Assembly: GCA_046328905.1 (NCBI GenBank)
Contig: JAXLVP010000001.1
Coordinates: 2,030,731 to 2,094,730 of the forward strand
Reading direction: 5' to 3'
Origin: Bdellovibrionota bacterium
GTDB taxonomy: Bacteria; Bdellovibrionota_C; UBA2361; SZUA-149; CAZDWZ01
DNA length: 64,000 nt
Under the pieces are notes generated by a model, which saw only the letters and a program-made list of their open reading frames with translations, did not search any database and was not told where the DNA came from. Both the position numbers and the translations under genes were made by a program. Numbering within the stretch: the stretch's first letter is position 1; each line of letters begins with the position of its first letter. Positions 39,206 to 64,000 of this stretch are shown in pieces.

Positions 39206-39225
39206 GCTTCAAAAGAAGCTTTTTT
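39206..39225 (+). terminator. Weak candidate intrinsic terminator after dnaN (GCTTC-aaaa-GAAGC followed by TTTTTT)
   Basis: A 5-bp stem with a 4-nt loop followed by T6. The short stem makes this low confidence. Confidence 0.25.
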
Positions 39226-40661: not shown

Positions 40662-40688
40662 CATTCCGAAATCACTAACGATAATTGT

Positions 40689-40717
40689 TTGCCCAAAAGA
40701 GGCGGAAAGGGTATACT
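40689..40717 (+). promoter_or_regulatory. Sigma-70-like promoter upstream of gyrB (TTGCCC -17 nt- TATACT)
   Basis: The hexamers and 17-nt spacing were read from the sequence. They lie about 60 bp upstream of the gyrB ATG. Confidence 0.4.
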
Positions 40718-40721
40718 TTAG

Positions 40722-43253
<2,532 letters not shown>

Positions 43254-43352
43254 CGAACATTCGAGCGCGTAGAGGGGCGGGCTGTTTCACGTTTCTGTGA
43301 AGCGGCCGGGCTGTTTCGCTGCTGCGTTCGAGCACAGAGAAGTCGATCGGAC

Positions 43353-45950
43353 ATGGAAAACAACAATACGACCGTCATACCGGTAAACATCGAAGACGAG
43401 ATGCGCGGGTCCTACATGGACTATGCGATGAGCGTCATTATCGGGCGAGCGCTGCCCGACATCCGCGATGGTCTGAAGCCGGTGCACCGCCGCATTCTCT
43501 ACGCGATGCTGAATGAAGGCCTTGTTTCCAATCGAAAGTATTCGAAATGCGCCGGGGTCGTCGGCGAAGTGCTCAAGCGTTACCATCCTCATGGTGATAG
43601 CGCGGTCTACGATTCGCTTGTTCGCATGGCTCAATCGTGGAACCTGCGTTACCCGCTCATCGACGGGCAGGGAAACTTCGGTTCGATCGACGGAGATTCA
43701 GCGGCGGCCTATCGTTATACGGAGTGTCGTATGCGGGCGCTCGCCGAAGCGATGTTGGCGGATATCGAAAAGGACACTGTCGATTTTCAACCGAACTTCG
43801 ATGATTCGACCGTAGAGCCGATCGTCCTCCCCTCCCGCGTTCCGAATCTGCTCATCAACGGAGCCGAAGGCATCGCGGTCGGAATGGCATCGAAGATTCC
43901 TCCGCACAATCTTCGTGAGATCATTGCCGCAACGATTCGCTTGATCGAAGAGCCTGCGTCGACTGTCGAAGAGCTCATGGAGCACGTTCCAGGGCCTGAC
44001 TTTCCGACCGCGGGAATCATTTACGGAGCGGCGCCGCTGCGACAAATTTATAAGACCGGTCGGGGGGTTATCCAACTTCGGGCAAAGGTCCATGTCGAGG
44101 AAATCAAGGGCAAGCGCGACGGCGAGATGATTGTCGTCGACGAAATTCCGTATCAGGTGAACAAGGCCCGGCTCGTCGAGAAGATCGCGGAGCTCGTCAA
44201 CGAAAAGAAGATTGAAGGTATCTCCCGACTGCGCGACGAATCAGACCGTCGCGGAATGCGCGTCGTTATCGAGGTGAAGCGCGATTCGTCCTCCGATGTC
44301 GTTCTCAACCAGCTCTTCAAGCTCACTCCGCTCCAACGAACATTCGGCGTGATGATGCTCGCCATCGTGGACGGCCGTCCGATGGTTCTCGGTCTCAAGG
44401 AATTCCTGCAGAATTTTATCGAGCACCGGCGCATCGTCATCGTGCGCCGCACTCGCTTCGATTTGGCGAAGGCGAAGGCGCGGGTGCACATCCTCGAAGG
44501 GTTGCTCATCGCGCTGTCGCATATCGACGAAGTAATCGCGATTATCAAGGCGTCGGAATCGACCGCCGAGGCGAAAGCCGAGCTCGAACGGCGGTTCTCG
44601 TTGAGCGAAATTCAAGCTCAACAGATTCTCGACATGCCGCTCCGCCGTTTGACCGGTTTGGAGCGAAAATCGATCGAGGACGAGCATGCAGAGCTGCTCG
44701 AGCTGATTACTCGGCTTACAAAGATCCTGACCGATCCGAAGGAAGTGGACCGGGTCTGCGTTGAGGAGCTGAAGGAAATCAGCGACAAATACGGAGACGA
44801 GCGCCGCACGCTCATCGAGGCCGAAGGCGAAGAGATCGACCTCGAGGACATGATCAACGAAGAGGACATGGTCGTCACCATCAGCCACCGCGGTTACGCG
44901 AAGCGCTGCTCCCCTTCTCTCTACAAGGCACAGGGGCGCGGCGGAAAGGGTGTCATGGGCACGAAGAAGCTCTCGGACGACGACGAGGATTTCGTCTCGG
45001 AGATGTTCATCGCTTCGACCCACGCCTATTTGTGCGTCTTTACGACGCTCGGAAAGCTCCATTGGCTGAAGGTCTACAACCTCCCTGAAGCCGGCCGGAC
45101 CGCGCGCGGTCGAGCGCTCGTGAACATGATTCAGTTCGAAGAGAACGAGCAGGTCTCTGCGATTCTCCCGATTCGTCACTTCGAAGAGGGGAAATACGTT
45201 GTCCTCGCGACCAAGAACGGCGTGATCAAGCGCGTCGATCTGATGGAGTTTTCAAACATCCGTCGCGGCGGGATTCGGGCGGTATCACTCGATGAAGGGG
45301 ATACGCTCATCGGCGCACGACTCACTGAGGGTGGCCGTGACATCCTGCTCACCACGGCGAGCGGTATGGCCATCCGGTTCAAAGAAACGGATGTTCGAGT
45401 GATGGGCCGAGTCGCTCGCGGCGTTCGAGGGATCAACCTCGACGAAGGCGATACAGCCGTAAGCATCGTCACGGTGCCGCATGTGAGCGATGAAGAAAGC
45501 GAAAACGCAGCCGAAAGCTCGAAAGAGGGCGGTGAGGTCTTCGGCTTGCTGAGCGTTTGCAAAAACGGCTACGGAAAGCGCACGCTGGTCGGCGAGTACC
45601 GAATGCAGAGCCGCGGCGGGAAGGGTGTCATCGACATCAAGACCGACGGCCGGAACGGTCCGGTCATCGGCAGCAGCCGAGTGAAGGACAACGATCACAT
45701 CATGCTGATCACGACTGCTGGTAAGGTTATCCGTATCGAGGCGAACAGTATCTCCCTGATCGGTCGCAACACCATGGGAGTGCGGGTCATCAACCTGGAC
45801 GAAGGCGAATCGGTAGCCGCCATTGCGCGAGTTGCTGACGCGGCGGTCACCGAAGGCGAATCGGGTACCGGCGGTAATGAAGAAGGCTCGGAAAACGCTT
45901 CCGCAAATGGCACCGCGAACGGCAGCGATACACCGGAAACGATTCAGTAA
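43353..45950 (+). CDS. gyrA: DNA gyrase subunit A
   Basis: The active-site region AAMRYTE-like ([10 protein letters not shown]), the QRDR region, C-terminal beta-pinwheel repeats and an acidic tail. Confidence 0.97.
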
Positions 45951-45979
45951 CCCAGTACGGGAAGCACATCGGGAGTAGA

Positions 45980-47026
45980 ATGAGCGACGGTTCGGAAGCG
46001 CCCAGCGACGGTTCGAAGGGGGCTGACCAAAAGACGGTCGCCGTCCTTGGTGCCGGGAGCTGGGGCACGGCCCTCGCACACCATCTCGCGCGTGTGGGTC
46101 ACCGAACCATTCTTTGGGGCCGCGACCCTGAGCTGCTTCGAGTAATCGGTGCAGAGCACCGAAACCCGAGATACTTTCCCGATCTTCCTCTCAGCCCTGA
46201 AATCACGGTCGAAGCTGATATTTTGAAGGCGGTTCGCGATGCGGACGCCGTCGTGTTCGCGGTGCCGTCCGGAGTTCTTCACGAAGTGCTGAAGAACGCG
46301 AAGCCCAATCTCAGAGCGGATGCCATTCTGGTCAGCACGGCAAAAGGTTTGGAGGATCAAACCTTGCAGCCGATGTCTGCGGTGCTTCGCGGCGAGCTCG
46401 GCGACCACGCACAGATCGCTGTCCTTTCCGGCCCGAGCTTCGCGCGAGAAGTCATCTTGGGGCTGCCGACCGCAGTGACCATCGCCGCACGAAGTCTGGA
46501 GACTGCCTCGGCCGCGGCCGCTTTCTTCCATATTGATTACTTTCGGGTCTACACTTCCCGCGACGTCGTTGGCGTAGAGTTCGGTGGCATCGTGAAAAAC
46601 GTGATTGCTCTCGCGTGTGGAGTTGTCGAGGGAGTCGGAATGGGGGCCAATGCCCGTGCGGCGCTTATCACCCGGGGACTACTGGAGATGCAGCGCATCA
46701 CCCTCGCCCTGGGAGGCGAAGCGGTAACAGTCACCGGCCTGAGTGGTCTCGGAGACCTCTTGCTCACGGCGACGGGCGACCTGAGCCGAAATCGGCAGGT
46801 TGGTTTGCGGCTAGGAAAGGGCGAGAAGCTGACGGACATCGTTTCCCACCTGGGCCAGGTCGCAGAAGCCGTACGGGTAACCCCGAAGGTTGCCGAGCTT
46901 GCCCGGCGACACAACGTTAAAGCACCCATTATTGAAGAAGTTGACCGAATCCTGTCCGGTCAGTCGAGCGCGGCGGAGTCGGTCAGAAAGCTGCTGTCTC
47001 GAGCGCCCGTATTAGAAGCGTCCTAG
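45980..47026 (+). CDS. gpsA: NAD(P)H-dependent glycerol-3-phosphate dehydrogenase
   Basis: VAVLGAGSWGTALA is the Rossmann motif; the C-terminal GpsA domain follows. Confidence 0.9.
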   Translation: MSDGSEAPSDGSKGADQKTVAVLGAGSWGTALAHHLARVGHRTILWGRDPELLRVIGAEHRNPRYFPDLPLSPEITVEADILKAVRDADAVVFAVPSGVLHEVLKNAKPNLRADAILVSTAKGLEDQTLQPMSAVLRGELGDHAQIAVLSGPSFAREVILGLPTAVTIAARSLETASAAAAFFHIDYFRVYTSRDVVGVEFGGIVKNVIALACGVVEGVGMGANARAALITRGLLEMQRITLALGGEAVTVTGLSGLGDLLLTATGDLSRNRQVGLRLGKGEKLTDIVSHLGQVAEAVRVTPKVAELARRHNVKAPIIEEVDRILSGQSSAAESVRKLLSRAPVLEAS

Positions 47027-51377: not shown

Positions 51378-52787
51378 GTGAAGGCCGATCCGCATCCGTT
51401 AGGAACTTCGGTCGATACGATAGCCGCTCCGATTACCGCCCATGGACGCGCCGGAGTTGCTGTAGTTCGCATCAGCGGGCCGCTCGCAGCTCCGGTGCTC
51501 GCCCAGATCTCGCCGCGTGCGAGTCTCATCACCGCCCAGCCTCGAACGCTCGTCATGACTCCCTTTCTCGAGGGACAGATTACGGGCGCCGACCATGTGC
51601 TCGACTACGGGCTCGCCGCTTATTTTCCAGCTCCAAACAGCTTTACCGGCGAAGACTGCGTCGAGCTGAATCTTCACGGGAGCCCCTATTTGGTTACTCG
51701 GTTGATGAGCATCCTCGCCGAGCTGGGTGTTCGTTCGGCGAAGCCCGGTGAGTTCAGTGAGCGTGCATTTCTCAACGGGAAGCTGGATCTCAGTCAGGCT
51801 GAGGCAATCGCAGACCTCATCGCCGCGGACACAGAGATCCAAGCCCGTGTCGCGCGGGAGCAGCTCGAGGGTCGCCTTTCGAAGGCGCTCAGCGATCTGG
51901 GGGAGCCGCTCAGAAATCTTCTCGCCGAGATTGAGGCGCACATCGATTTCCCCGATGAGGATATCGAGCCGTTGACGTATTCGGAATGGACAAGCGCTCT
52001 GCGCGCGATAGAAGGGCAAATTGAGGCCTATCTTCGCTCGTTCGCATATGGGCGACTGTGCCGTGAGGGCGCGCTCGTCGTGCTCGCAGGGGTTCCAAAC
52101 GCAGGGAAATCAAGCCTGCTGAACCGGCTTCTGGGCGAGGATCGAGCGATCGTCACCGCCGTGCCGGGAACAACCCGGGATAGTATCGAGGAGCCTGCGT
52201 CGCTGGGCGGGCTGAGAGTTCGATTCTGTGACACGGCCGGCCTTGCGACAGAGCATCGGACACCCGACGAGGTCGAGCAGCTCGGCATCGAGCGGAGCTG
52301 GAAGAAGCTGACCCAAGCCGACCTGGTGCTTTATGTCTTTGACATTTCGACCGGACTTGATGCCGAGCTCGATATCGTTGAAGGGGTCCGTCAATCAGCT
52401 CGAAAGGTGATGCTCGTCGCCAATAAAGCTGACCTCGTTTCGAATGCTGGAGCGGGTAATCTCCCGTCGGGCTCCGATGCCCGTCTCGTCTCTGCCCAAA
52501 ACGGCGAGGGAATCGCTCAGCTCGCTGATGCGATCGTGGCCGAGCTGCTCGGCGATGACGCCCAGTCGGACGCTCTGCTGATAACCAATCAGCGGCATTT
52601 CGAAGCGCTCAGAGGCGCGGACCGGGCACTCAAAGACGCCTTGGTAGCGCTGCAATCCTCGACTCCGGCAGAGTTCGTGGCGGTCGACCTCAGGGCGGCT
52701 CTCGGCGCCCTCGAAGAGATCATCGGCAGCACACCGACCGAGGATATCTTGGGCCGCATCTTTTCTAAGTTCTGTATCGGAAAGTAG
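51378..52787 (+). CDS. mnmE: tRNA uridine-5-carboxymethylaminomethyl modification GTPase MnmE
   Basis: G-domain motifs (GVPNAGKSSL, DTAG, NKAD) and the C-terminal CIGK tetrapeptide. Confidence 0.95.
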   Translation: MKADPHPLGTSVDTIAAPITAHGRAGVAVVRISGPLAAPVLAQISPRASLITAQPRTLVMTPFLEGQITGADHVLDYGLAAYFPAPNSFTGEDCVELNLHGSPYLVTRLMSILAELGVRSAKPGEFSERAFLNGKLDLSQAEAIADLIAADTEIQARVAREQLEGRLSKALSDLGEPLRNLLAEIEAHIDFPDEDIEPLTYSEWTSALRAIEGQIEAYLRSFAYGRLCREGALVVLAGVPNAGKSSLLNRLLGEDRAIVTAVPGTTRDSIEEPASLGGLRVRFCDTAGLATEHRTPDEVEQLGIERSWKKLTQADLVLYVFDISTGLDAELDIVEGVRQSARKVMLVANKADLVSNAGAGNLPSGSDARLVSAQNGEGIAQLADAIVAELLGDDAQSDALLITNQRHFEALRGADRALKDALVALQSSTPAEFVAVDLRAALGALEEIIGSTPTEDILGRIFSKFCIGK

Positions 52788-52858
52788 AGTCAGCCTCCGC
52801 GCTTTGAGCCTCATGTGGGCGCAAATAGCGATCAGATGCTTGGCGAATGACCTCGAAC

Positions 52859-53242
52859 CTACTTCTTCGCTTTTCCTTCTTCAAACAACGCCGCGAGATA
52901 CTCACGGAGATAGCCGAGATTAACGGGCTTCGGCAGGAACCGCGAAGCGCCGAGCTCCAAGATGTGGTTGATGTCTGCCAGGGGAACCACGCCGGAGACC
53001 ATGATGATCGGCGTGTCTTTGTATTGAGCCGTGCCGCGCATGAGTTGGATGAGGTTTTCACCCGACAGGTCAGGCATCATCATGTCGGTGATGAGACCCA
53101 CGATGTCTGAATTGTCACTGAGAATGTTCCAGGCACGCATTCCCGTCGAGGCTTCGATGGTGCTGTAGCCTTCACTCCGAACTGCTTGGACGAGGACCGT
53201 CCGGCTGGTTAGGTCATCGTCTGCTATGAGAATCTTCTGCAT
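52859..53242 (-). CDS. Standalone response-regulator receiver domain protein (CheY-like)
   Basis: ILIADDD, the phosphoacceptor in LITDMMMPDLSG and the conserved Lys in PKP. The start was taken at the internal Met (MQKILIADDD). Confidence 0.8.
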   Translation of the reverse strand: MQKILIADDDLTSRTVLVQAVRSEGYSTIEASTGMRAWNILSDNSDIVGLITDMMMPDLSGENLIQLMRGTAQYKDTPIIMVSGVVPLADINHILELGASRFLPKPVNLGYLREYLAALFEEGKAKK

Positions 53243-53486
53243 CCTGGTTTTCCTGTTCAAACTGCTGCGCGGCCGCCACCATCCCTGACCGGAATGGGTC
53301 TGACCCTGTTTGGTGAGTCGGTATCTCTCCCTCTTAACGTATATAGATTTGAGCTGTCGAGAAATTCAGGGTAGACCCCTGCCCTGTCATATCGGGTATC
53401 ATCCCCGTTTGGTTCGAGTAATAACAGAATGGGGCGCAGCGCTATCGGTCGTCCCGAAAACTATTACTTCACTGAGACTAGGTACG

Positions 53487-53816
53487 ATGGCTCGTTTGGA
53501 TCGTGAGAAAGCGCTTCGACTCCTCGACGGAGACATGGAAATCTACTCGAAGATAGTGGAAGTCTTCTCCGGAGATGTGCCGGTTCAGTTGAGCGTGCTG
53601 AGCGCTGCGCTCGCAACGAACGACATCAAAGAAGTTGGTCGAGTCGCCCACGCTCTCAAGTCGGCGGCGGCCACGGTCGGAGCCGAAGACCTCCACGCCA
53701 TTCTGTTCAAGCTTGAAAAAGCGGCCGAAGGTCGTTCGCCGGAGTCAATTCATAAGCTCGTTGCCGAAGCGAAGCTGGAAATAGAGGCGGTTCGCGGCGA
53801 GCTCGCCCGCTCCTGA
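53487..53816 (+). CDS. Hpt (histidine phosphotransfer) domain protein
   Basis: An Hpt motif HALKSAAATVGA in a four-helix-bundle-sized (110 aa) helical protein. It is divergent from the receiver gene. Confidence 0.55.
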   Translation: MARLDREKALRLLDGDMEIYSKIVEVFSGDVPVQLSVLSAALATNDIKEVGRVAHALKSAAATVGAEDLHAILFKLEKAAEGRSPESIHKLVAEAKLEIEAVRGELARS

Positions 53817-53871
53817 GCGATAAGAGGGCTGCGACTGCTGCCGAGCCCTGGCGTTGCCCTCAGCCTGTCGC

Positions 53872-54969
53872 TTACTCCGGGACGATTCTCTGCGCCTGAT
53901 TCTCACCGGTCCGCTTCCATAAGTCGGACAAAACCTCCAACATTCCGTTTGCGATTGTGCGCCGATACGGATGGTTCTGCGGAAGCTGCCTCATCAGGCG
54001 CCGATGTGCCGCTGTCATGGAGTGATAGGGCAAACTGGGAAGGAGGTGGTGAAGGGAATGATAGCGAAGCCCAACCGGTGCGAGCAGCGCTGCGATTGAC
54101 CACGGCGACACGACGGAGATCGAATCGAGAAGCTGGTCGGAGAAATCCACTGTCTGGCCAGGATTCGTGTAGCGATGGGCGCAAAGGCTCCGGATGTAGT
54201 TGTAGGCCATGATGAGCACCAGAGACAGATACGTGTTCAGAAACAGCGCCGCTGGGACAATGCTTTTGGACCAGAGCACGACTACCGCACACCAAAACGC
54301 AGTGGCGTAGACCTCCTGCAAAACGCCAATCATCCGTTGTTCCGCGTTTGGAAGCGGCCGAATGTATTTGAGGTTCATGGCAATCGTGCTCATGTGCTGA
54401 ATCACCCAATTGCGAAATCTACCCCCAATCAGAATCGATATCGGACCGAGCACGATGAAACGCACGGCAAGAAGCACCGGGGCGATCCAGATGTTAAGGA
54501 AAAGAGGGACGAGCCAAGCTGCACGGGAACCCAGACCAAGTGGAACATAACGTGGGTCCGAAGCGGTTCCGAACGTGTTGCTTTTGTGGTGATCGAGGTG
54601 TGAAATTCCGTATGTGGAGGTCGGTTGAAAGAGAATGGCACCGCAGAGCATGTTCCAAACGGTCGAGAACGGTCGCACCCAGGGCCGGTTACTGTGCGCG
54701 ATCTCGTGGATGAAGAACAGCGAGCGGTAGAAAAGAAACGAATTCGCGACGAGAGCTAGCACGCGTAGCCCAAACGAAACTTCAGAGCTCGACGCGAACC
54801 ACAGACAGGCCCATGCGAGGGTGATGCTGGCTGTGAAGTCAGCCCAGTAAACAAGCGGTCGAGGCTCGAGAAGGTCGCCGACAATCAGCTTCACCGCCTT
54901 CATGTCGATTGAGCGATCTTCTGCAACTACCGGCTTCTGTAAGGCGTTTTCGTTCGTTCGCGTTGCCAT
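53872..54969 (-). CDS. Membrane di-iron fatty acid desaturase / AlkB-like hydroxylase family protein
   Basis: Three His boxes (FIHEIAH, SHLDHHK, RYHSLHH) and multiple TM helices. It lies 10 bp downstream of the TonB-dependent receptor gene. Confidence 0.7.
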   Translation of the reverse strand: MATRTNENALQKPVVAEDRSIDMKAVKLIVGDLLEPRPLVYWADFTASITLAWACLWFASSSEVSFGLRVLALVANSFLFYRSLFFIHEIAHSNRPWVRPFSTVWNMLCGAILFQPTSTYGISHLDHHKSNTFGTASDPRYVPLGLGSRAAWLVPLFLNIWIAPVLLAVRFIVLGPISILIGGRFRNWVIQHMSTIAMNLKYIRPLPNAEQRMIGVLQEVYATAFWCAVVVLWSKSIVPAALFLNTYLSLVLIMAYNYIRSLCAHRYTNPGQTVDFSDQLLDSISVVSPWSIAALLAPVGLRYHSLHHLLPSLPYHSMTAAHRRLMRQLPQNHPYRRTIANGMLEVLSDLWKRTGENQAQRIVPE

Positions 54970-54979
54970 AGGTGTTAGC

Positions 54980-57058
54980 TCAATAATGGAGGGTTGCTTT
55001 GGCGTAAAAGCCTCGTTTGATCTCGGTCTCGGGCGGTCCGAAGATGTTGCCGACAAACTCCTCATGATGATCATGAAGGAGGTTTTGGCCGAAGAGGGCG
55101 AGCTCGAGATTGGGCCGTACATGCCAGAGCACTCCGCTATCGAGCTCCGCGTAACCGTCGATATCACCACTTCCCAGGTGGGACACGTATCGGGGCAGGA
55201 AGCTCAGTTCGAAGTCCTCCGCTACGGTCAGGTATACCCGAGCGTTGAGCTGGTTTCGCGGTGTCCCTTCCTCGATGAGCAGCTTGTCGCCACTATCGGT
55301 GCTGTCTCCCTGGTCAACGCCGATGTCGATGAAGGAATAACCGCCGGCCAGACGGGCCCAGTTTGTCGGATGCCAATCAAGAGAAACTTCAAATCCGATT
55401 GATCTGGCATCAAGGGCATTGTCGAAGAGGACGGGGATAACAACCGTAGGACGATCTGCTCCGGGAGCAGTGCCGAAATACGGTGTCCCGCCCTCGAAGC
55501 TGTAGACATCCGAGTAACGATTGTAGAAGGTTGCAAAGTCGACAGAAACCTCCGGAGACAGCTGCGATCGCGCTCCGAGCTCGTAGGAAAGGACGTCTTC
55601 AGATTCGACCTTCCGGCTGCCGAATGCGGTTACAAGAGCCTCAGGTGAGCCGTCCGAGGCCGGAATTGCGGCGATTGGAAACTGAACGTCCTCAAATACC
55701 AGTGACGGCGGCGCCACGGCGCGAGAGACGGCGAGCCAAATCGAGTTCGCCGAGTCCGGTGTCCAAATCAAGCGTGCGTTCGGCATCACCTCGTTTCCTG
55801 TGGCGACGTTGTGCTCGAACTTCGAGCCGAGAATGAAATGCAGCTGATTTTCGATCAGCGCGATCTCGTCCTGGACAAAGCACGACACAAGGTCTTTTTG
55901 CCGATTCGGGGGATTCGTGCTCTCAGCGAACGTGCCTTCTGTGGCACTCCAAAAGTGCTGATATTCGACGCCGTAGACGACGTCGTTGCCTGCAAACGGT
56001 GTGAAACGATGCTGAAAATCCGCATCGGAAACGTTATAGTCCAGATGGATGATCGTGCTGTCGAGCGTCTGCTGACGATAACTGTAATGCGCTTCGAGCG
56101 AAGAGGTCTGAGTCATTTCCCGCCTCCACTTCACTGAGCCCATACCGCCTTTCCACTTCTCCTGCCCGCTAAAGCTCTCACTATCGACGTAGGGTGGGTC
56201 TAGGGAGGGCGTCTGCGGTCGGATTTCCGTGGAGTTGCCAAATGTCTCCCCCCCGACGAAAAGTGTGTCCTCAGCCGAAAGCTTTGACTCTGCGCGCAAG
56301 CCGCCGGAGATGATTTCCCAACCGTCGTCAGCGTCGCCGCCCGTTTTCAGCTCGTTCGACGCGCGGTCGGCGTATCTTCCGAAGACCCGATACGTGGTGT
56401 CGTCACCGACGGTTCCGCCGTAGCGGAGCGAGCCGAAGCCGCGTTCCTCGTTTCCGCCGCCACCGCTCGCAAGAAGTCCCTGCGTTTGTTTGGTTCGCTT
56501 CGTGATGATGTTAATCACGCCGTTTACAGCGTTTTCGCCCCATAAAGCTGCACCGGGGCCGCGGATGACTTCAATCCGCTCGACGTCGTCGAGGACGATC
56601 TCATTGGTCTCCCAATAGACGCCGTTGGTGATCGGTGAGAACACGCTGACACCGTCGAGCAATACGAGAAGCTTGTTCGCAAAAACTTGGTTGAAGCCGC
56701 GGATGCTGATGGCCCACTTGCTCGACGAAACCCGTGCTACGCTCACGCCCGGCACCAAGCGTAGCGCCTCTGCGACGTGAGTCGCGCCGGAGCGGCGAAT
56801 ATCCTCATTCGTGATCACGTAGACGGCGGAGGCTGTTTCCGAAAGCGTCTGCTCCTTTTTGCCCGCTGATGTGACGACGAGGTCGAACGTCAGCAGCTTC
56901 TTGAGACCGACCTCTGTGAGGTCGCCAGGCAGAGCAGAATCGTCTTGCGTGGCGCTCGGTCCCGGATGGGACGCCGACGAGTCTGATTGTCCCGCGGTTT
57001 GCGCATTCGCGAGAGGTGTCAGGAGCGCTGTCAGCGCAGCTACCGAGAACCAATGCAT
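54980..57058 (-). CDS. TonB-dependent outer-membrane receptor
   Basis: A signal peptide (MHWFSVAALTALLTPLANA), a TonB box / plug domain (LVVTSAGKKEQTLSETASAVYVITNEDIRRSGA...VPGVSVAR...IRG) and a long beta-barrel ending in an aromatic residue (LHY). Confidence 0.85.
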   Translation of the reverse strand: MHWFSVAALTALLTPLANAQTAGQSDSSASHPGPSATQDDSALPGDLTEVGLKKLLTFDLVVTSAGKKEQTLSETASAVYVITNEDIRRSGATHVAEALRLVPGVSVARVSSSKWAISIRGFNQVFANKLLVLLDGVSVFSPITNGVYWETNEIVLDDVERIEVIRGPGAALWGENAVNGVINIITKRTKQTQGLLASGGGGNEERGFGSLRYGGTVGDDTTYRVFGRYADRASNELKTGGDADDGWEIISGGLRAESKLSAEDTLFVGGETFGNSTEIRPQTPSLDPPYVDSESFSGQEKWKGGMGSVKWRREMTQTSSLEAHYSYRQQTLDSTIIHLDYNVSDADFQHRFTPFAGNDVVYGVEYQHFWSATEGTFAESTNPPNRQKDLVSCFVQDEIALIENQLHFILGSKFEHNVATGNEVMPNARLIWTPDSANSIWLAVSRAVAPPSLVFEDVQFPIAAIPASDGSPEALVTAFGSRKVESEDVLSYELGARSQLSPEVSVDFATFYNRYSDVYSFEGGTPYFGTAPGADRPTVVIPVLFDNALDARSIGFEVSLDWHPTNWARLAGGYSFIDIGVDQGDSTDSGDKLLIEEGTPRNQLNARVYLTVAEDFELSFLPRYVSHLGSGDIDGYAELDSGVLWHVRPNLELALFGQNLLHDHHEEFVGNIFGPPETEIKRGFYAKATLHY

Positions 57059-57119
57059 TCGGAGCTTGCGTAAGAAGCGTGGAGAAGGCTTTCCGCGCCC
57101 CGAGGTTTTCCATTGAGCC

Positions 57120-58043
57120 TTATTCATTTCCAGCACGTCGCCGCGGCTCCTCTCCGCTCAGCTTCTCCGACAGCGGTCGGCGAAAAGTTACTAAGATGTT
57201 TCCGCGTGGCGGAAAAAAATATCCGAAAAATGCCTCGAAAAGCAGGCGGGGAGAACGAAACATCACCGACTTTTGCATCGGTTGGACGCAGACGTCGATC
57301 ATTCCGCCGGTGGCGTTGATGTAGGACCACATGTAACGCGTATTCACGGTCGGGATGAGGCTGTCGAAGTAAAAGCGTCTCAGCGTGTGCTGCACCTCGA
57401 GCGAGTGCTCTCTGGCGAGCTCGAAGAGCACGCGACCCGAAAGTATATGCCTGTGGTACGGCTGTGAAAGCTCCATTGCAGGAAATGTCCGGTACTGAAG
57501 CGGAATGTGGTCGGCATTCGGTGTTCCTAGCACCATCAGACCACCGGGCCTGACCCGTCCGACGAGCATGTTGAGAAACTCCCGTGGACTGTCGACGTGC
57601 TCGATGACGTCGTAGGACACGACGGCATCAAACGTTTGAGAGAAGATACCGGGGTCGTTGAACTGCTGAACGAACGAATCGAATCCGAAGACATTGGTAT
57701 AACCCGCCGACCTCAGCACTTGAAGAAAAAGCCCTGCGCCGCAGCCGAAATCGAGAATACGGTCGGTCTTCTTCAGGCCGAATCGCTCGAGCAGACGAAT
57801 TCGATTTGCGTATCCGACACGCGTGTGGAAATCCAATCGGTGATTCTTGAACGGGTATCGGTCGTAGTAGTGCAGCAGGTCGACTTCTTCCTTGGAGTGC
57901 AGAGAACCGCAGTTCGTGCAGCGCCAAACGGTGAAGTGGTCGTTTCGAAAGCAGTCGACGTGGCACGGGATGGAGGCGACATCCGTGGCGCCGGCAAAGG
58001 TGCCCGGATTGTCACAAAGATTACATTCCAGACACTCAGCCAT
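57120..58043 (-). CDS. Class I SAM-dependent methyltransferase with an N-terminal Cys4 zinc ribbon
   Basis: CLECNLC...CTNCGS, then the Rossmann motif ILDFGCGAGLF and an acidic DVIEHV. Confidence 0.7.
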   Translation of the reverse strand: MAECLECNLCDNPGTFAGATDVASIPCHVDCFRNDHFTVWRCTNCGSLHSKEEVDLLHYYDRYPFKNHRLDFHTRVGYANRIRLLERFGLKKTDRILDFGCGAGLFLQVLRSAGYTNVFGFDSFVQQFNDPGIFSQTFDAVVSYDVIEHVDSPREFLNMLVGRVRPGGLMVLGTPNADHIPLQYRTFPAMELSQPYHRHILSGRVLFELAREHSLEVQHTLRRFYFDSLIPTVNTRYMWSYINATGGMIDVCVQPMQKSVMFRSPRLLFEAFFGYFFPPRGNILVTFRRPLSEKLSGEEPRRRAGNE

Positions 58044-59340
58044 GAGCTGCCCTCCGATTGTTTGTTACTTGGCCGCGAGGCTCTGCGCCGGTTACCTCGT
58101 TGAGGATTGAGGGGAAGATCTTTTCCGGTCGATACTCTTCCAGCTCTTTCGCAATTTCCTTTGCGAGATCTCGATGGCGAGTGGAGCGAAGTAGGGCTGT
58201 GAGCGCAGTTTTGAAATCCTCAGCAGATGAGTTGTCCGCCCTGCACAAAATTCCGGCGCCGCAGCGATGAACGTTGGTCATGCACAGGAGCTGGTCCATG
58301 TTCGAAGCGATACCGAGCACGGGTTTTCCTTGAGCGAGCGCTTGGTAGGTGGACGGGCTGCCGCCGTTCGAAATCACTACGTCGGCTCGTTGAGCCAGAG
58401 CTTCACCCGGAAGATATTCAGCGTGTCGAAATCCGCTTGGAATCTGATCGGATGCGATGCGGCCGGCGGTTGCTAAAACGACCTGGCAGTCCAGTGATCG
58501 GAGCGCTTCGAACAGCGTTGGAAGCACTTCCAGCGGCCCCGAAGAGCCGAGCGAGAGATAGATTATCGGCTTCGAGTCAGACAGATTGGACCACCAACTG
58601 GGAAGACCGCATTCGGGCGTCCAAGAAACTGAACCGAGGTAGCGATGTGAGGGCAGCAGCTTCTCGACGGGGGCGATTCCTGGCGTGTCCGAGAAACAGG
58701 TGATATCGCCCCAGGTAAAGCCGGTGAGATAGTTCTCGAACGGAGGAAGGCCATATTCCCGCCTGACCTGGTCGAGCCCTCGGGCCTGCCTTTTCATGAC
58801 CAGCGGAAGAAGCATGTGGAAGAGGCCTTCTGCTGCGCGCACACCGACGCCGCCTTTTAATCGATGGAGCCCCAACGTCCGGATCGGTTCGAACGAGGGA
58901 AGCGGAAATCGGTTTCGTTCTGCAAAAGGACTCCAATACGCGTTCGTCAGGGAGACGTATGGAATACGCTTGACGGTAGCGCTCACTCCGAGCGAAAGCC
59001 GCATGTCGCCCACGACGGCATCAGGCGAGAGCCGTTCGAGCAGCCCGAGATCTTCTTCTGTCCGCGTTCGGACGGTGTCCTCCGGGAAGAGCTCGGCCCC
59101 TTTCGCGAGAATCTCCAGAAACTCTTCGGGCGATGTCGAGTGGACCTTGTGATACGTGCACCGGGTTTCGTCGATGAGGGGTCGGTAGCGCTCGGCGCAG
59201 CAAAAATGCACGTCGAAAAGCTCGCGATCAAGGCACTGCGCGAGCACGTAAGGTCTAACGACGTGGGCGAGAGTCACTCCTTCGCCGAGGAACAAGATTC
59301 GCTTTTTTTGAGCTTTTTTCCGAGGGTCAGCCGTCGTCAC
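58036..59340 (-). CDS. GT1-family UDP-glycosyltransferase (MGT / macrolide-glycosyltransferase-like)
   Basis: A GT-B fold with the C-terminal UDP-sugar binding region (HAEYLPGEALAQRADVVISNGGSPSTYQALAQGKPVLGIASNMDQ, a PSPG-like box). It overlaps the methyltransferase start by 8 bp. Confidence 0.8.
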   Translation of the reverse strand: MTTADPRKKAQKKRILFLGEGVTLAHVVRPYVLAQCLDRELFDVHFCCAERYRPLIDETRCTYHKVHSTSPEEFLEILAKGAELFPEDTVRTRTEEDLGLLERLSPDAVVGDMRLSLGVSATVKRIPYVSLTNAYWSPFAERNRFPLPSFEPIRTLGLHRLKGGVGVRAAEGLFHMLLPLVMKRQARGLDQVRREYGLPPFENYLTGFTWGDITCFSDTPGIAPVEKLLPSHRYLGSVSWTPECGLPSWWSNLSDSKPIIYLSLGSSGPLEVLPTLFEALRSLDCQVVLATAGRIASDQIPSGFRHAEYLPGEALAQRADVVISNGGSPSTYQALAQGKPVLGIASNMDQLLCMTNVHRCGAGILCRADNSSAEDFKTALTALLRSTRHRDLAKEIAKELEEYRPEKIFPSILNEVTGAEPRGQVTNNRRAAHG

Positions 59341-59368
59341 GTGTGGTTCGGTCCAAAAGAGTTTCCGT

Positions 59369-60196
59369 TCACTCCCTGAGCACTGCTACTTCGAGAAGCT
59401 CTGAATCGATCTTCAGCCCCAAGCGATGGGCAAGTGGAAGATCGACCGCGATGCGCGCGCGATTCGACTCTGCGAAGAGTTGCATCACGCAATTTCCCCA
59501 CTGAACTCTCTCCACGGAACAAACGGAGAGAAGCGGGTGATTTTTCAGTTGTTCGACAAATCCTCGGTCGTTCGTCAACACATCCGATCCGACGAAAACG
59601 ACGTTGCACTGCTGAAGCAGAACGCTGCTGCCGCGCTCCGCAAATGTGACTCGGATCTTTTTTCCGCGGGCCGATTTTCCTCGAACGGTATCAGCGATGA
59701 ACCCGTTGAGCGGGTCGGACCCGACGACGCAAAGCGAAATAGGGGCGCCGGGTCCATTGGATGGAGACCCTGCCGACGCATCTTCCGACGAACTTTGCGT
59801 GCTGCCGGAGGACGCTTCGGGCAATGAAACGAATTTCACGAGGTAGTAGACGAGAGCTGCCCGAATCTTCCCTGAACGATCTTCGACCGTATCGGCGAGC
59901 GCCGATGAAGGCGCAATCACAACTAAAAAATAAAACACAGCAGATACGAGAACGCAAACGCGTCTGCGGTGTCCGGCGACGCTGCGCCGAATCTCGGAGC
60001 GAGGCGAGAGCTTTGCGGAGAATCGGTTTCTCACATTGTTGCCGGTGAAGCTGCTCTTCGATGCGGTCATGTTCGCGACGGGCATATCACCCGCTTTGCT
60101 GATGAACGCACGCGAGTGCCGTTCGATGAACGATCGACTGAAGTATCTGCGCTGCGGAGCTTCGGCGCGACAGCTTTCTTTCGAGATCGCTCGCAT
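59369..60196 (-). CDS. Secreted DUF4154 / YfiR-like periplasmic protein
   Basis: A signal peptide (RRRVCVLVSAVFYFLVVIAPSSALA) and C-terminal blocks (ISLCVVGSDP, VVFVGSD, IAVDLPLAHRLGLKIDSELLEVAVL) that resemble the YfiR family. The start is uncertain within the ORF. Confidence 0.45.
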   Translation of the reverse strand: MRAISKESCRAEAPQRRYFSRSFIERHSRAFISKAGDMPVANMTASKSSFTGNNVRNRFSAKLSPRSEIRRSVAGHRRRVCVLVSAVFYFLVVIAPSSALADTVEDRSGKIRAALVYYLVKFVSLPEASSGSTQSSSEDASAGSPSNGPGAPISLCVVGSDPLNGFIADTVRGKSARGKKIRVTFAERGSSVLLQQCNVVFVGSDVLTNDRGFVEQLKNHPLLSVCSVERVQWGNCVMQLFAESNRARIAVDLPLAHRLGLKIDSELLEVAVLRE

Positions 60197-60390
60197 TTAG
60201 GGAGTTATGGGACAATCCTCCCCATGCTTGTAAAATATCGGCTCAAATCACGGCAAGTCCGAATTTATTGTCGCAAATTGCAACAGCCCAAGCGTTGATT
60301 GCGTGGGGTCGTTGTTGTACATCGCTGACTTTGCGCGACCGTTTCTGCTTTCCGGCCGCGACCAACGACCCATTACAGCGCCGAAAGAAC

Positions 60391-62031
60391 ATGGCCCCGA
60401 GAAGCGCAACATCACACCGGATGCTGTTCACCGGCGCCCGTTTTTCCGCTGCTGTTGCGCGGTGGATCCACTGCCTCGGAGCGGATTCGGTTATCGTGAG
60501 CACTGAGCGATGTGCCGATTTCGTGCAAGGTTGTGAGCCGAAGCACGCTGTGCCGCCCGCTCTTCTCCGTCCCGTATCTGTCCACCAGCTTCGCGAGCTC
60601 GTGCAGATCGCCGCTGAGTTTTCGATTCCCATCCATCCGGTCAGCCGCGGGAAAAATTGGGGCTACGGCTCCGCGTCGGCGTCACAAGAGGGCTGCGTCG
60701 TGGTCGATCTCGGCGCGTTGAACCGTGTTCTCGAGGTAAACGCCGACCTCGCATACGCCGTGATCGAACCAGGCGTCACTCAGGAGCAGCTCTACCGCTA
60801 CCTCGAGGAGCAGAACATACCACTGATGGTCGACGTCACCGGTGCACCACCCAGTGCGAGCATCGTCGGAAACACCATTGAGCGGGGATACGGCTACACC
60901 CCCTACAGTGATCATTTTGCTCATACGGCATGCTTCGAAGTGTTGCTTTCGGACGGAACCTTGTTTGAAACCGGGTTCGGTCGCTTTGCAAATGCTCGGG
61001 CAAAATACCTTCATAAAACGGGCATCGGCCCGTCGCTCGACGGTTTGTTCACCCAGTCGAACTTCGGCATCGTGACGAAGATGGCCGTCTGGTTGATGCC
61101 GAAGCCTGATCGCTGTGCAGCGTATGTCGTTCAGGCGCAGAACGACGCTGAGCTTGCACGAATGTTGGTCGCATTGCGGGACCTGAAGCTCCGCGGTTTG
61201 GTCGAAGGCAGTCCTCATGTGGTGAACGATTTGCGTTCGCTGTCGTTGCTCGCCCAGTTTCCTTTCGACTCATCCAGTCCGGACACATTCGGTGAGAATG
61301 AGCTGAGCATTCTTCGAAAGCGGTGGGGAGTAGCCCCCTGGACCTGCATCGGTGGCCTTTGGGGCACGGAAGGTCAGGTCGCAGAATCCGCTCGCGCAAT
61401 TGCTGAACGGATGAAATCCGCCGGTCTGACCGAGCCGCAAATTCTCTCCGCGCTCGAGGTCTCGGGAGACCAGCACGATTGCACTCTTCCCAAAACCGAG
61501 GAGGAGCTTACCCGCTACCGCGCCGAATTGATGTCTGCCTTGGTGAGCGGCATTCCTACCATGCGCGCGATTCCAGGGATGTATTGGCGGAAGCGCCAAC
61601 CGGCGAACCGCTCGAGCTTGGATCCAATCCGAGATAAATGCGGCCTGCTCTGGTGCTCGCCGGTGATTCCGCTCACAGAAGCAGACTCTAACCTGCTCAT
61701 GTCGATCATTCGCGGCACGTGCAGAGAGCGCCGACTGGAAGTGAACGTCGCACTCGCTCTTGTCAACGATCGCACAGCGACGGCGACAGTCGGGCTTTTC
61801 TTTGATCCTGCCGAGCCCGAGCAGCGAGCAGCAGTCGAGGAGGCATACTCAACGCTTTTGCGACGTTTCGCGGAGTCGGGGTACTTCCCCTATCGAGGAG
61901 CCGATACGCTGAGTGAGCTCTGCGGCGCTCCGAATCAATCGGAGATAGCGTTTCAGCAGGTCTGTTATCGCATCAAGAGCGCGCTTGACCCGCAACATAT
62001 TGTTTCGCCCAATCGTTACGGCATCATTTGA
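60391..62031 (+). CDS. FAD-linked oxidase of the VAO/PCMH family (p-cresol methylhydroxylase PchF / vanillyl-alcohol oxidase-like)
   Basis: The FAD_binding_4 region VSRGKNWGYGSAS...VDLGALNRVLEVNADLAYAVIEPGVTQEQLYRYLEEQNIPLMVDVTGAPPSASIVGNTIERGYGYTPYSDHF closely mirrors the PchF/VAO N-terminal domain. The start was chosen at the internal Met. Confidence 0.75.
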   Translation: MAPRSATSHRMLFTGARFSAAVARWIHCLGADSVIVSTERCADFVQGCEPKHAVPPALLRPVSVHQLRELVQIAAEFSIPIHPVSRGKNWGYGSASASQEGCVVVDLGALNRVLEVNADLAYAVIEPGVTQEQLYRYLEEQNIPLMVDVTGAPPSASIVGNTIERGYGYTPYSDHFAHTACFEVLLSDGTLFETGFGRFANARAKYLHKTGIGPSLDGLFTQSNFGIVTKMAVWLMPKPDRCAAYVVQAQNDAELARMLVALRDLKLRGLVEGSPHVVNDLRSLSLLAQFPFDSSSPDTFGENELSILRKRWGVAPWTCIGGLWGTEGQVAESARAIAERMKSAGLTEPQILSALEVSGDQHDCTLPKTEEELTRYRAELMSALVSGIPTMRAIPGMYWRKRQPANRSSLDPIRDKCGLLWCSPVIPLTEADSNLLMSIIRGTCRERRLEVNVALALVNDRTATATVGLFFDPAEPEQRAAVEEAYSTLLRRFAESGYFPYRGADTLSELCGAPNQSEIAFQQVCYRIKSALDPQHIVSPNRYGII

Positions 62032-62138
62032 TCGTGCCGCAACCGCGTTTTTGATCGGTTTTTGAGGTCCGTTCGTTGTCGTTGGTGACGCCGAGCGGGA
62101 GACACACAATTGCGAAGAAGGGGAGAATTCAAACCAGA

Positions 62139-63497
62139 ATGGAAGTCGGGCTCGCTGCAGATTTCTCGGAACGTTGCCAAGCGTGGCACTTGGTGCACCG
62201 CCAATACACAAGAAAGGGCCTTTCTCCGGCGAACCCGAGCAGGATGCTGTTTTCACCGCTCGACCTGCTTCCAACCTCTGTCACGGCCGTCGCACACGAA
62301 GCAGGCGACCTTGTCGGCACGATGTCCGCAGTCATCTGTCCGGTCGGTGCGCTCCCATCGGGCAAACAATTTGAAGCGGATTTAGAGGAGTTCGGCGTCG
62401 AGGGGCGGATCGTTTGCGAGTTCACAAAGCTCGCTTGCGTCGATGACCGCGGCCCCATCGGTGAGCAGGCAGTCCTCTGGATCGTCGGCTATCTTCTCGA
62501 ATGGTGCTCGCGGAATCTGGTTGATGACGTTTTTTGTGTCACGCATCCGCGGCACGCGCTCGCATGGAATCGCATCTTCGGATGGTCGCCAATCAGTGCG
62601 GTGAAGTCGTGCCCGCACGTCAACGCTGCGCCGGGGGTATTGCTCCATATTGACTTACGAAGGCTGCAAAGCGACCGCGCAGCCATCAGCGTCCGGGGAC
62701 GAAGGATCCTGAGCGAGTGCGCAGGAATGTGTCGCCAGGGGGCGACATCCTACCGGATGACCGGCTCGGAAGCCGCCCTGTTGATGCTCCAATGCCCGGA
62801 CCCGATTGACCGCACAAACACGATTCAGCGGAGCCTGCTGACTCGCTACTATCCCTGGGCGACCACATTTATCGAGCGTTTCATGAGCTCTGCCGCGGAA
62901 CCGTGGCGCCCGCTCTCATTCACTTCGCTGCGGAAGCCCCATCGGGAGAGAGGATATTCTTTCTCACTCCACGGCCCTCGGCCGGATTCGAGCCAGCCGC
63001 CCGAGCTGTTCAGTGGAGAGGAGCCTCGCTTTCTCGTCGTTGGAGGAACGCCTTATCTACAGTCCGTGATGCGCCGTCAGCTGCGAGACCGAAACTACCA
63101 CTGCTCGATAGTACGAGACCCGGCGATCGCTCGGAAGCATGCGCAGCGAGAACGATTCGACCTGGTGCTGCTCAGCGAAAAGCTGCAGGGGGAGCAGGGT
63201 CAGCTCTTTGCGGACGAAATCAGAGACGTCGATGGCGCTCTGAGAAGGCACACCCCGATTTTACAGCTCAGAGCCGCGCAAACTTCAGGTGAGACTCTCC
63301 GCCGCGGAGGCGAACGCCCCTTGAAACAGTGGGTTTACGAGTACTCCTCCCCCACCCTCCTTCTCCGTGCGCTGGACACACTCTCATCGGCACCGCCGAA
63401 GCGGGATTACCAAGCGTATGCGGAGGAACTGAGCGGGTGGTCGAGAGAAACCGTTCGACAGCGCGAACGAGCCGCAGCGCATGCGGGACGGGCGTGA
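62139..63497 (+). CDS. Fusion protein: N-terminal FeeM-family N-acyl amino acid synthase-like GNAT domain plus C-terminal degenerate (pseudo-)receiver domain
   Basis: The N-terminal ~240 aa follows the pattern of FeeM / PEP-CTERM-associated N-acyltransferases (a LxHRxY block, a central hydrophobic core and HPRHALAWNRIFGW). The C-terminus has a receiver-like alpha/beta pattern, but VVGGTP replaces the acidic DD pair, LVLLSEKL places Ser where the phospho-Asp should be, and PILQLRA follows. Confidence 0.5.
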   Translation: MEVGLAADFSERCQAWHLVHRQYTRKGLSPANPSRMLFSPLDLLPTSVTAVAHEAGDLVGTMSAVICPVGALPSGKQFEADLEEFGVEGRIVCEFTKLACVDDRGPIGEQAVLWIVGYLLEWCSRNLVDDVFCVTHPRHALAWNRIFGWSPISAVKSCPHVNAAPGVLLHIDLRRLQSDRAAISVRGRRILSECAGMCRQGATSYRMTGSEAALLMLQCPDPIDRTNTIQRSLLTRYYPWATTFIERFMSSAAEPWRPLSFTSLRKPHRERGYSFSLHGPRPDSSQPPELFSGEEPRFLVVGGTPYLQSVMRRQLRDRNYHCSIVRDPAIARKHAQRERFDLVLLSEKLQGEQGQLFADEIRDVDGALRRHTPILQLRAAQTSGETLRRGGERPLKQWVYEYSSPTLLLRALDTLSSAPPKRDYQAYAEELSGWSRETVRQRERAAAHAGRA

Positions 63498-63522
63498 AGA
63501 CGCACGAGATGGGGTGACGACA

Positions 63523-63771
63523 ATGGGAAACCGATTCGGATCATCCAATAAACGCGAGGCCAAGGCTGAGAAGGCTCCCGTCGAGGCCCCGGCTTCCTTC
63601 CGGAAGCAGGTTCGGCTATTCGAAATCGAAGTGGTCGAAGATGCGCTCCGGCTGAACAACTTCAATGAGTCACAGACGGCGAGATATCTCAAAATGGACC
63701 GGAATACACTCAGACGCATCCGTGCTCGAGCGCGGCAGCAGCGTAGGAATGACGAAAAAAGCGGTGGCTAA
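63523..63771 (+). CDS. Standalone Fis-type helix-turn-helix DNA-binding protein (resembles the NtrC C-terminal HTH)
   Basis: VEDALRLNNFNESQTARYLKMDRNTLRRIRA is a typical Fis/NtrC-family HTH. 83 aa from the internal Met. Confidence 0.55.
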   Translation: MGNRFGSSNKREAKAEKAPVEAPASFRKQVRLFEIEVVEDALRLNNFNESQTARYLKMDRNTLRRIRARARQQRRNDEKSGG

Positions 63772-64000
63772 TGCGCGTTCGTTGTCGACCCGGGTTCAGC
63801 GTCCTTGATGAGGAAGCTCTCGATTGTCGAAAGGAGCGTATCCTTGTCGATTGGCTTGTTGAGAAAAGCGTCCATCCCGCAGTCGATACACTTCTGGAGT
63901 CCGTCCGGGCCCACGCTGGCCGTGAACGCGACGATCGGGAGGTGGTTCTGCGCCCCCTGTTCCCGCTCACGAATAACGCGCGTTGCTTGAAATCCGTCGA
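63768..64000 (-). CDS. 3' end of a receiver-domain-containing protein (response regulator or hybrid histidine kinase), truncated by the window end
   Basis: Minus-strand translation gives ...IREREQGAQNHLPIVAFTASVGPDGLQKCIDCGMDAFLNKPIDKDTLLSTIESFLIKD*, a classic receiver C-terminus. It is convergent with the Fis-HTH gene, with a 4-bp overlap. Confidence 0.55.
   Translation of the reverse strand, partial: DGFQATRVIREREQGAQNHLPIVAFTASVGPDGLQKCIDCGMDAFLNKPIDKDTLLSTIESFLIKDAEPGSTTNAH

Follow-up and report, generated by a model that had tools for sequence, protein, structure and literature searches.

The 64,000-nucleotide stretch of DNA from a Bdellovibrionota bacterium analysed here, called the window in the following, contains a run of five co-directional open reading frames (ORFs) on the minus strand between positions 53872 and 60196, and this report deals with the proteins encoded by this run and by the divergent genes facing it. 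From the first gene, for a YfiR-like periplasmic protein, to the last, for a membrane desaturase or hydroxylase, successive genes are 28 bp apart, overlap by 8 bp, and are 61 bp and 10 bp apart, in this order. A sequence-only reading of this DNA had described the same five ORFs, and its coordinates and all four junctions were reproduced. The five genes very probably constitute one transcription unit. The earlier domain assignments were also confirmed, as Pfam matches were obtained for every gene, scoring 84 bits (DUF4154), 55 bits (EryCIII-like_C), 76 bits (Methyltransf_23), 88 bits (Plug), and 81 bits (FA_desaturase) in gene order from 60196 to 53872. For the receptor, Plug and the barrel model TonB_dep_Rec had both been named; Plug was detected with 87.6 bits, but the Pfam barrel model itself was not reported. 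The genes and features of the region are:

52859-53260, minus strand: single-domain CheY-like response regulator (PF00072, 69.7 bits)
53310-53816, plus strand: Hpt phosphotransfer protein, convergent with the desaturase gene (PF01627, 50 bits)
53872-54969, minus strand: predicted membrane di-iron His-box desaturase/hydroxylase (PF00487 and His boxes)
54980-57058, minus strand: TonB-dependent receptor of the TOL_0244 type (Plug and NF053590)
57120-58043, minus strand: S-adenosylmethionine-dependent methyltransferase (MT), Methyltransf_23 with a predicted N-terminal four-Cys zinc ribbon (Pfam and conserved cysteines)
58036-59340, minus strand: glycosyltransferase (GT) of glycosyltransferase family 1 (GT1) with an EryCIII-like C-terminal domain (Pfam and PDB relatives)
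59369-60196, minus strand: YfiR-like periplasmic protein, DUF4154 (Pfam PF13689 and NF053591)
60197-60390, no strand: divergent intergenic control region, with a near-palindrome at 60270-60284 and the hexamer GATTGC at 60297-60302
60391-62031, plus strand: flavin adenine dinucleotide (FAD)-dependent 4-phenol oxidase of the p-cresol methylhydroxylase/vanillyl-alcohol oxidase (PCMH/VAO) subgroup (Pfam FAD_binding_4, phenolate triad)
62139-63497, plus strand: FeeM-type N-acyl amino acid synthase with a degenerate receiver domain (FeeM 97.8 bits, Response_reg 22.8 bits)
63481-63771, plus strand: small Fis-type helix-turn-helix (HTH) protein (domain match to HTH_8)
63768-64000, minus strand: 3' end of the gene for a CHASE8-HAMP-HisKA-HATPase_c-receiver hybrid histidine kinase, continuing beyond the window (Pfam, NF053592)

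According to their closest family models, the receptor and the YfiR-like protein are best read as the putative sensor pair of an envelope sensing system. The best NCBIfam match of the receptor is NF053590, 'TOL_0244 family TonB-dependent receptor', with 515.6 bits against a curated cut-off of 645, and this alignment, from profile position 3 to 602 of 604, covers the barrel. In an alignment with relatives, a TonB-box-like motif, FDLVVTS, is conserved before the plug, as is the terminal aromatic residue, Tyr. The YfiR-like protein matched PF13689 over residues 110-271 (84.2 bits, gathering score 24.9), and its best NCBIfam match is NF053591, 'TOL_0243 family YfiR-like periplasmic protein' (63.2 bits, cut-off 125). 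Its relatives in two of the loci described below, L006 and L004, also stay under this cut-off, with 84 and 61 bits, respectively. YfiR was the sole match in a PDB search, and the cysteines of the sequences LCVVG and CNVVF align with the YfiR cysteine pair. A signal-peptide-like segment, RRRVCVLVSAVFYFLVVIAPSSALA, was recognized by its alignment to the N-termini of relatives, not by a predictor. Within the DUF4154 domain, a Ser/Gly-rich insertion of 16-20 residues, SSGSTQSSSEDASAGSPSNGPG, is present.

The minus-strand ORF at the end of the window could be completed via an identical Logan contig, L090 (window coordinate = L090 coordinate + 60440). Pfam searches of the completed ORF, whose 3' end is at 63768, revealed the hybrid kinase, with a CHASE8 domain of 52.7 bits. 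Its N-terminus matched the whole profile (positions 1-223 of 223) of NF053592, 'sensor histidine kinase, YfiR-like protein-associated', with 129.1 bits against a cut-off of 194. On annotated plasmids, the three kinds of genes are found in the canonical order receptor, 'YfiR family protein', and CHASE8 protein, the third being a CHASE8 hybrid kinase on pSRL1 of Sphingobium indicum and a CHASE8-HAMP-GGDEF-EAL protein on pPBSW1 of Pseudoalteromonas. No biosynthetic genes, including those for FeeM or GT, are present at the triad loci of these two plasmids. The periplasmic domain of YfiN has been classed as CHASE8 (PMC8085984), and YfiN is repressed by YfiR, which is sequestered by the outer-membrane protein YfiB (PMC4655355). 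In the window, the Hpt protein and the CheY-like receiver are encoded on the flank of the operon, and the Fis-type HTH protein after FeeM.

The flavoprotein encoded divergently from the run shows full-length homology to PCMH (239 bits) and scores about 190-210 bits with vanillyl-alcohol and eugenol oxidases. Its residues Y92, Y501, and R502 align with the phenolate triad of PCMH, which we take to be Tyr95, Tyr473, and Arg474, a numbering checked against the letters of the chain. By this alignment, the flavoprotein is assigned to the 4-phenol-oxidising subgroup. Since the triad is kept, a para-substituted phenol is pointed to as substrate, which would fit an N-acyl-tyrosine-type product of FeeM.

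In the FeeM protein, the synthase domain is followed by a C-terminal stretch whose Response_reg score is below the cut-off of 30.2 and whose PDB matches are CheY and kinase-receiver structures. In this receiver-like domain the acidic pocket is lost, VVGG replacing DD, and so is the phospho-acceptor, with LLS in place of LLD. The FeeM homologue of locus L086 has a canonical receiver (82 bits) with pocket and Asp kept. An exhaustive search for FeeM yielded 1239 representatives at E <= 0.001, and among the 47 long representatives 24 contain a Pfam Response_reg domain, the best E-value being 9e-29. Fusion of FeeM to receiver domains is therefore a recurrent architecture. Such fusions are encoded at 62139-63497 in the window and, on the minus strand, at L086:2358-4226, L003:14237-15940, and L004:14215-15903; in the L003 and L004 copies, acidic pocket and phospho-acceptor Asp are missing, as in the window copy. 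The NCBI name for the window protein is 'response regulator'. Exactly the 452-residue product starting with ATG 62139 is on record, so this codon is most likely the FeeM start.

To define how far this arrangement is conserved, neighbourhoods anchored on GT homologues were compared, and the occurrence of neighbours was counted with hidden Markov models over 85 non-redundant GT loci. FeeM was detected in 27 of them, the N-terminal part of a CHASE8 sensor in 24, a 4-phenol VAO in seven, a TOL_0244-like receptor in five, and the YfiR-like protein and this MT in four each. At least six other, distantly related loci share cluster genes with the window; in L003, L004/L005, L006, L016, and L086 the gene orders are shuffled, with protein identities of 31-57%. 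Their arrangements are given below, with arrows for the direction of transcription and a double slash for a divergent junction; three are from metagenome-assembled genomes (MAGs) or metagenomes.

L175 (Logan contig): <-GT <-DUF4154 <-receptor // VAO-> FeeM-> <-CHASE8 kinase
L006 (Bdellovibrionales): <-ceramidase <-VAO // receptor-> DUF4154-> GT->
L016 (MAG): DUF4154-> receptor-> FG-GAP-> halogenase-like-> <-VAO // GT-> kinase-> OmpR-type regulator-> FeeM->
L004/L005 (metagenome): GT-> MT-> <-kinase <-FeeM // VAO-> unknown-> <-DUF4154 <-receptor
L003 (MAG): GT-> MT-> <-kinase <-FeeM // VAO-> (contig end)
L086 (Bdellovibrionales): <-kinase <-FeeM-receiver <-VAO // GT-> <-O-methyltransferase

L175 is closest to the window, with identities of 49% for the receptor, 42% for the GT, 40% for the VAO, and 32% each for FeeM and the YfiR-like protein. 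The VAO gene is divergent from the GT-containing unit in the window and in four relatives, L006, L016, L086, and L175. From these comparisons, FeeM, VAO, GT, and the CHASE8 kinase appear to be the constant core, with receptor and DUF4154 protein usually present. The tailoring genes vary: Methyltransf_23 occurs in the window and in L003-L005, an O-methyltransferase in L086, a halogenase-like gene in L016, a ceramidase gene in L006, and the desaturase gene in the window only. The proposed linkage of the five-gene run to FeeM and VAO thus stands for the GT, which is linked to them in the six other loci at protein identities of 35-49%, and in some loci for the MT, but fails for the desaturase. That the accessory enzymes differ among relatives suggests one product scaffold which may have been diversified. 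Among these enzymes are a tryptophan-halogenase-like flavoenzyme (L016:6668-8353, plus strand), an O-methyltransferase of the COMT type (L086:7325-8599, minus strand), a membrane protein of the ceramidase family (L006:4558-5277, minus strand), and an A-PCP-C protein resembling nonribosomal peptide synthetases (L175:13715-16915, plus strand). Two further proteins, of 527 aa (L004:18035-19618, plus strand) and of 605 aa (L175:2134-3951, minus strand; Cys-rich, with a signal-peptide-like N-terminus), belong to no Pfam family and show no similarity to each other or to the window.

The GT matched EryCIII-like_C with 55.4 bits (gathering score 31.7). It had been labelled MGT-type, which is too specific: membership in the GT1 family holds, but the MGT subfamily model TIGR01426 aligned to the C-terminal half only and gave 55.5 bits against a cut-off of 260. 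With 365 homologues at E <= 1e-10, the protein belongs to a large uncharacterised family, and its nearest solved structures are CalG1, YjiC, and OleD, all natural-product GT1 enzymes. In Oxalobacteraceae, a GT gene of this family has genes for a CHASE8-HK-Hpt kinase and for a TonB-dependent receptor of 804 aa as neighbours, but none for a YfiR-like protein. The MT matched Methyltransf_23 with 75.9 bits (gathering score 27). Four N-terminal cysteines forming two CxxC pairs, C7, C10, C42, and C45, are conserved without exception in four homologues, and a zinc ribbon with predicted metal binding is assigned to them. Only weak, UbiG-like matches were obtained in a PDB sequence search with the MT, and a single-sequence structure model was unusable, its predicted local distance difference test (pLDDT) value being 35.7. 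The 8-bp overlap of the GT and MT genes is found in the window and in L005; translational coupling of the two genes is probable, and the overlap suggests that the MT may methylate the sugar or the glycoside.

The desaturase matched PF00487 with 81.3 bits (gathering score 29.7), and its His boxes, H88/H92, H124/H127/H128, and H304/H307/H308, show no variation among 32 sequences. A search with its AlphaFold 2 model (pLDDT 88.9) returned the uncharacterised chain 8xks_K and AlkB (8f6t, 8sbb) as best solved matches, whereas neither the protein nor a profile of the 32 sequences matched anything in PDB sequence searches. From motifs and model, it is predicted to be a membrane di-iron enzyme, either a desaturase or a hydroxylase, two activities that are not separable here. 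Its place in the cluster was seen only in this organism (L001). The gene is present in none of the 85 GT loci and, reciprocally, none of the other cluster genes was found in 82 loci of desaturase homologues (33-42% identity; 30 of the 82 loci are at least 8 kb long). These homologues occur in unrelated contexts, and one adjoins a ketoacyl synthase. The desaturase is accordingly rejected as a conserved cluster member, and its earlier inclusion as a linked pathway enzyme is not borne out; by this distribution, it appears to be a lineage-specific addition to the cluster.

The control region between the divergent units may be longer than the annotated 194 bp. About 75 N-terminal residues of the YfiR-like ORF (window 59950-60196), which lie upstream of the signal peptide, are not matched in any relative, and no ribosome-binding site stands at a proper distance before ATG 60196. 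Translation probably begins downstream, at 60085, 60070, or 60034, and since the start could be as low as 60034, the shared region would comprise 194-356 bp. The receptor gene also has an alternative start, GTG 57136, with a properly spaced GGAGAGGAG, which is used by an independent gene call on an identical contig; translation from this codon may replace the 61-bp gap by a 17-bp overlap with the MT gene. As operator of the divergent units, the 15-mer GTCGCAAATTGCAAC at 60270-60284 had been put forward, in which six of seven arm positions are complementary. For near-palindromes of this quality, the frequency is about 2.5 per 194 bp over the window, shuffled versions of the control region contain 1.5 of them (P = 0.42), a repeat search of the region reported nothing, and the 15-mer was not found in equivalent regions of relatives. 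With a frequency at chance level and no conservation, this candidate was discarded. Promoter-like and terminator-like matches were not above shuffle expectation either. The hexamer GATTGC (60297-60302) is present, on either strand, in all five independent intergenic regions adjacent to VAO genes, those of the window, L004, L006, L016, and L086 (shuffle P about 0.013 for the maximum over all hexamers). ATTGCA, which lies inside the near-palindrome, occurs in four of the five. GATTGC/ATTGCA is a possible operator half-site and a weak lead. A scan of 52000-64000 with Rfam gave no match, and no hairpin stood out 3' of the desaturase stop codon (z = 0.14).

From these results, an envelope sensor resembling YfiBNR that is wired to the synthesis of a glycosylated, methylated N-acyl-tyrosine-type lipid is the explanation we favour, with a probability of about 0.55. 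The transcription unit would combine two modules travelling together in evolution, one for sensing and one for chemistry. The sensing module would consist of the receptor and the YfiR-like protein together with the CHASE8 hybrid kinase, the Hpt protein, and the CheY-like receiver. In the manner of YfiB-YfiR-YfiN, the YfiR-like protein would bind the CHASE8 domain of the kinase and hold it in one signalling state. The receptor, in the role of YfiB, would capture the YfiR-like protein upon ligand binding or TonB action, and the kinase thus freed would feed a phosphorelay to the Hpt and receiver proteins. The chemistry module would comprise the GT, the zinc-ribbon MT and, in this lineage only, the desaturase/hydroxylase, along with the divergently encoded FeeM and PCMH/VAO-type oxidase; an oxidised, glycosylated, methylated N-acyl-tyrosine-type lipid would be the product. 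How much lipid is made would be set either at the shared divergent region, through transcription, or through contacts with the pseudo-receiver of FeeM. The receiver-type domain within FeeM makes control of lipid production the most likely task of the sensor; alternatively, the sensor would detect the lipid itself. In this scheme, we infer all protein-protein contacts, the ligand, the substrate, and the order of the reactions.

Several observations weigh against this explanation. The receptor, the YfiR-like protein, and the kinase all score under the curated NCBI cut-offs and would, by these scores, be divergent relatives rather than certified members of the three families. The receptor and YfiR-like genes are separated by the GT and MT genes, and the kinase gene is 3.6 kb away in a different transcription unit. 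The sensor mechanism is drawn by analogy, and no experimental study of the receptor/YfiR-like/CHASE8 triad, nor any other paper on it, was found in the literature searched. Without a phospho-acceptor Asp in its receiver, FeeM is unlikely to be phosphorylated directly in this organism. The argument for participation of the desaturase is its adjacency in a single lineage. Moreover, the GT family is found mostly in proteobacterial loci of the PEP-CTERM/exosortase type (L007, L008, L009, and most of L010-L089), and because it is commonest there, the acceptor of the GT might not be the FeeM product.

This last point leads to another explanation, in which the GT and MT modify a surface glycan or a PEP-CTERM-type substrate, the desaturase is an ordinary membrane-lipid enzyme, the sensor regulates surface remodelling, and FeeM and VAO are loosely related neighbours. 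Most of the 85 GT loci indeed have as neighbours PEP-CTERM proteins, ThiF, a SagB-like nitroreductase, a hexapeptide acyltransferase, and a PrsT-like TPR protein, a short FeeM (276 aa) is a further neighbour in proteobacterial loci of this type, and FeeM-type synthases of PEP-CTERM loci have been linked to polysaccharide phenotypes (PMC11072679). The unrelated contexts of the desaturase homologues, including the one beside a ketoacyl synthase, would also agree with it. However, the nearest solved relatives of the GT are natural-product enzymes, the partners in the window-like subgroup are VAO, long FeeM, an aromatic-tailoring O-methyltransferase, and a halogenase, and no PEP-CTERM gene was seen among the annotated ORFs of the window, which makes such an envelope or exopolysaccharide role rather unlikely. 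Still less credit is given to the view of the sequence-only reading, in which the whole run is devoted to tailoring an N-acyl aromatic amino acid and exporting it, with the receptor as the exit channel that completes the set and the YfiR-like protein as an accessory. Its tailoring part agrees with our data in that lipid-tailoring enzymes are linked to FeeM and VAO. The tight packing of the five genes opposite to VAO/FeeM, the chemistry of GT, MT, and desaturase, which is compatible with tailoring of a lipid, and the conserved linkage of the receptor to the cluster are also in line with it. The export part was abandoned, since the closest models of the receptor and the YfiR-like protein belong to a curated signalling triad whose CHASE8 partner is encoded just beyond the window, and since this triad is also found without biosynthetic genes. 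TonB-dependent receptors have a barrel filled by a plug and work as energised importers or as sensors; we know of none acting as exporter. Taken as a whole, export through the receptor is highly improbable, and the receptor should be annotated neither as a product exporter nor as a siderophore receptor.

The rival that comes closest to the favoured explanation, though we hold it to be unlikely as well, is a loop of autoinduction or uptake, comparable to quorum sensing or to FecA-like surface signalling, with FeeM, which has the LuxI fold, as signal synthase. Here an N-acyl-tyrosine glycolipid would be released, bound or re-imported by the receptor, and relayed via the YfiR-like protein to the CHASE8 kinase. 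Receptor, sensor, and synthase are co-inherited in at least five loci, the receptor gene of the window is in the same operon as the tailoring enzymes, FeeM is fused to receiver domains, and divergent promoters would be typical of feedback circuits. On the other hand, canonical triads lack a synthase, so that their ancestral ligand must have been something else, and both the assignment of the ligand and the logic of the circuit are wholly conjectural. A more specific version, to which we would give rather long odds, is a closed feedback circuit in which the receiver-fused FeeM makes an N-acyl-tyrosine signal that is oxidised, glycosylated, and methylated. The receptor would detect it at the outer membrane, and sequestration of the YfiR-like protein would pass its occupancy on to the CHASE8 kinase and the Hpt phosphorelay, back to the synthase. 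If true, this loop would be a previously undescribed circuit of cell-cell or self-sensing.

A sensor of the favoured kind has its nearest known counterpart in YfiBNR (TpbB), the cyclic di-GMP system of Pseudomonas, E. coli, and Yersinia (HmsCDE). Shared features are a periplasmic protein of the DUF4154/YfiR family with a Cys pair, an inner-membrane partner with a periplasmic CHASE8 domain followed by HAMP, and an outer-membrane third component. The latter is an OmpA/Pal-like lipoprotein, YfiB, in the known system, but a 22-strand TonB-dependent receptor in the window, where the cluster lacks any OmpA-like gene. The output differs as well, a GGDEF cyclase being replaced by a hybrid histidine kinase (HisKA-HATPase_c-REC) with Hpt and CheY-like proteins, and the window genes are split over two transcription units and interleaved with genes for enzymes. 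The triad NF053590/NF053591/NF053592 provides the best or specific match of all three window proteins in full-length alignments; unlike canonical triads, the window genes are non-contiguous, lie within a FeeM/VAO/GT cluster absent from those triads, and specify proteins scoring under the cut-offs. In FecA-FecR-FecI signalling, a TonB-dependent receptor is likewise coupled to a relay that spans the periplasm and controls a cytoplasmic output. The window, however, has no STN extension, anti-sigma factor, or extracytoplasmic function (ECF) sigma factor, and a soluble YfiR-like protein would serve as the relay to a histidine kinase.

On the chemical side, clusters for acyl-amino-acid synthases are comparable, namely fee from environmental DNA, the stieleriacine cluster of Stieleria maiorica, and those associated with PEP-CTERM. 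A synthase of the FeeM fold near an oxidoreductase, a desaturase, and regulators is shared, and N-acyl-tyrosine chemistry is plausible in each, the window included. In the stieleriacine cluster, acyl-amino-acid synthase, oxidoreductase, and desaturase lead to N-acyl-dehydrotyrosine (PMC7293339). Compared to these clusters, the window adds a receiver-fused FeeM, a PCMH/VAO-type oxidase, a GT1 enzyme, and a zinc-ribbon MT, and carries its own receptor, YfiR-like protein, and CHASE8 sensor. The flavoprotein shares the Tyr-Tyr-Arg triad and full-length homology with PCMH and its relatives vanillyl-alcohol oxidase and eugenol oxidase. It differs in that the position of the tyrosine binding FAD covalently is Met, with Tyr one position later, that no gene for a cytochrome subunit is nearby, and that its substrate is presumably a lipidated phenol. 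Each part is thus of a known kind; the combination and the FeeM-receiver fusion are what is new, and in the literature searched no paper was found that links FeeM-type synthases to TonB-dependent receptors, kinases, or VAO enzymes. Receptor/YfiR-like/CHASE8 triads are widespread enough to have curated NCBI models, and the cluster suggests a concrete output for them, the synthesis of a tyrosine-based lipid, and hence an experimental handle. The FeeM-receiver fusion within a two-component sensor suggests products that may be made on an envelope signal or may themselves be signals.

The GC content of the cluster is uniform with that of its flanks. The stop codons of the Fis-type HTH gene, which overlaps the end of the FeeM gene by 17 bp, and of the convergent CHASE8 kinase gene overlap by 4 bp. 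The cluster adjoins mnmE and yidC, which directly precede it, and the dnaA origin region. This chromosomal origin region, at 34000-47000 of the window, contains dnaA (35709-37562), dnaN, recF, gyrB, and gyrA; the local GC content dips to 0.53-0.54 there, and the minimum of the cumulative GC skew is at about 36-38 kb.

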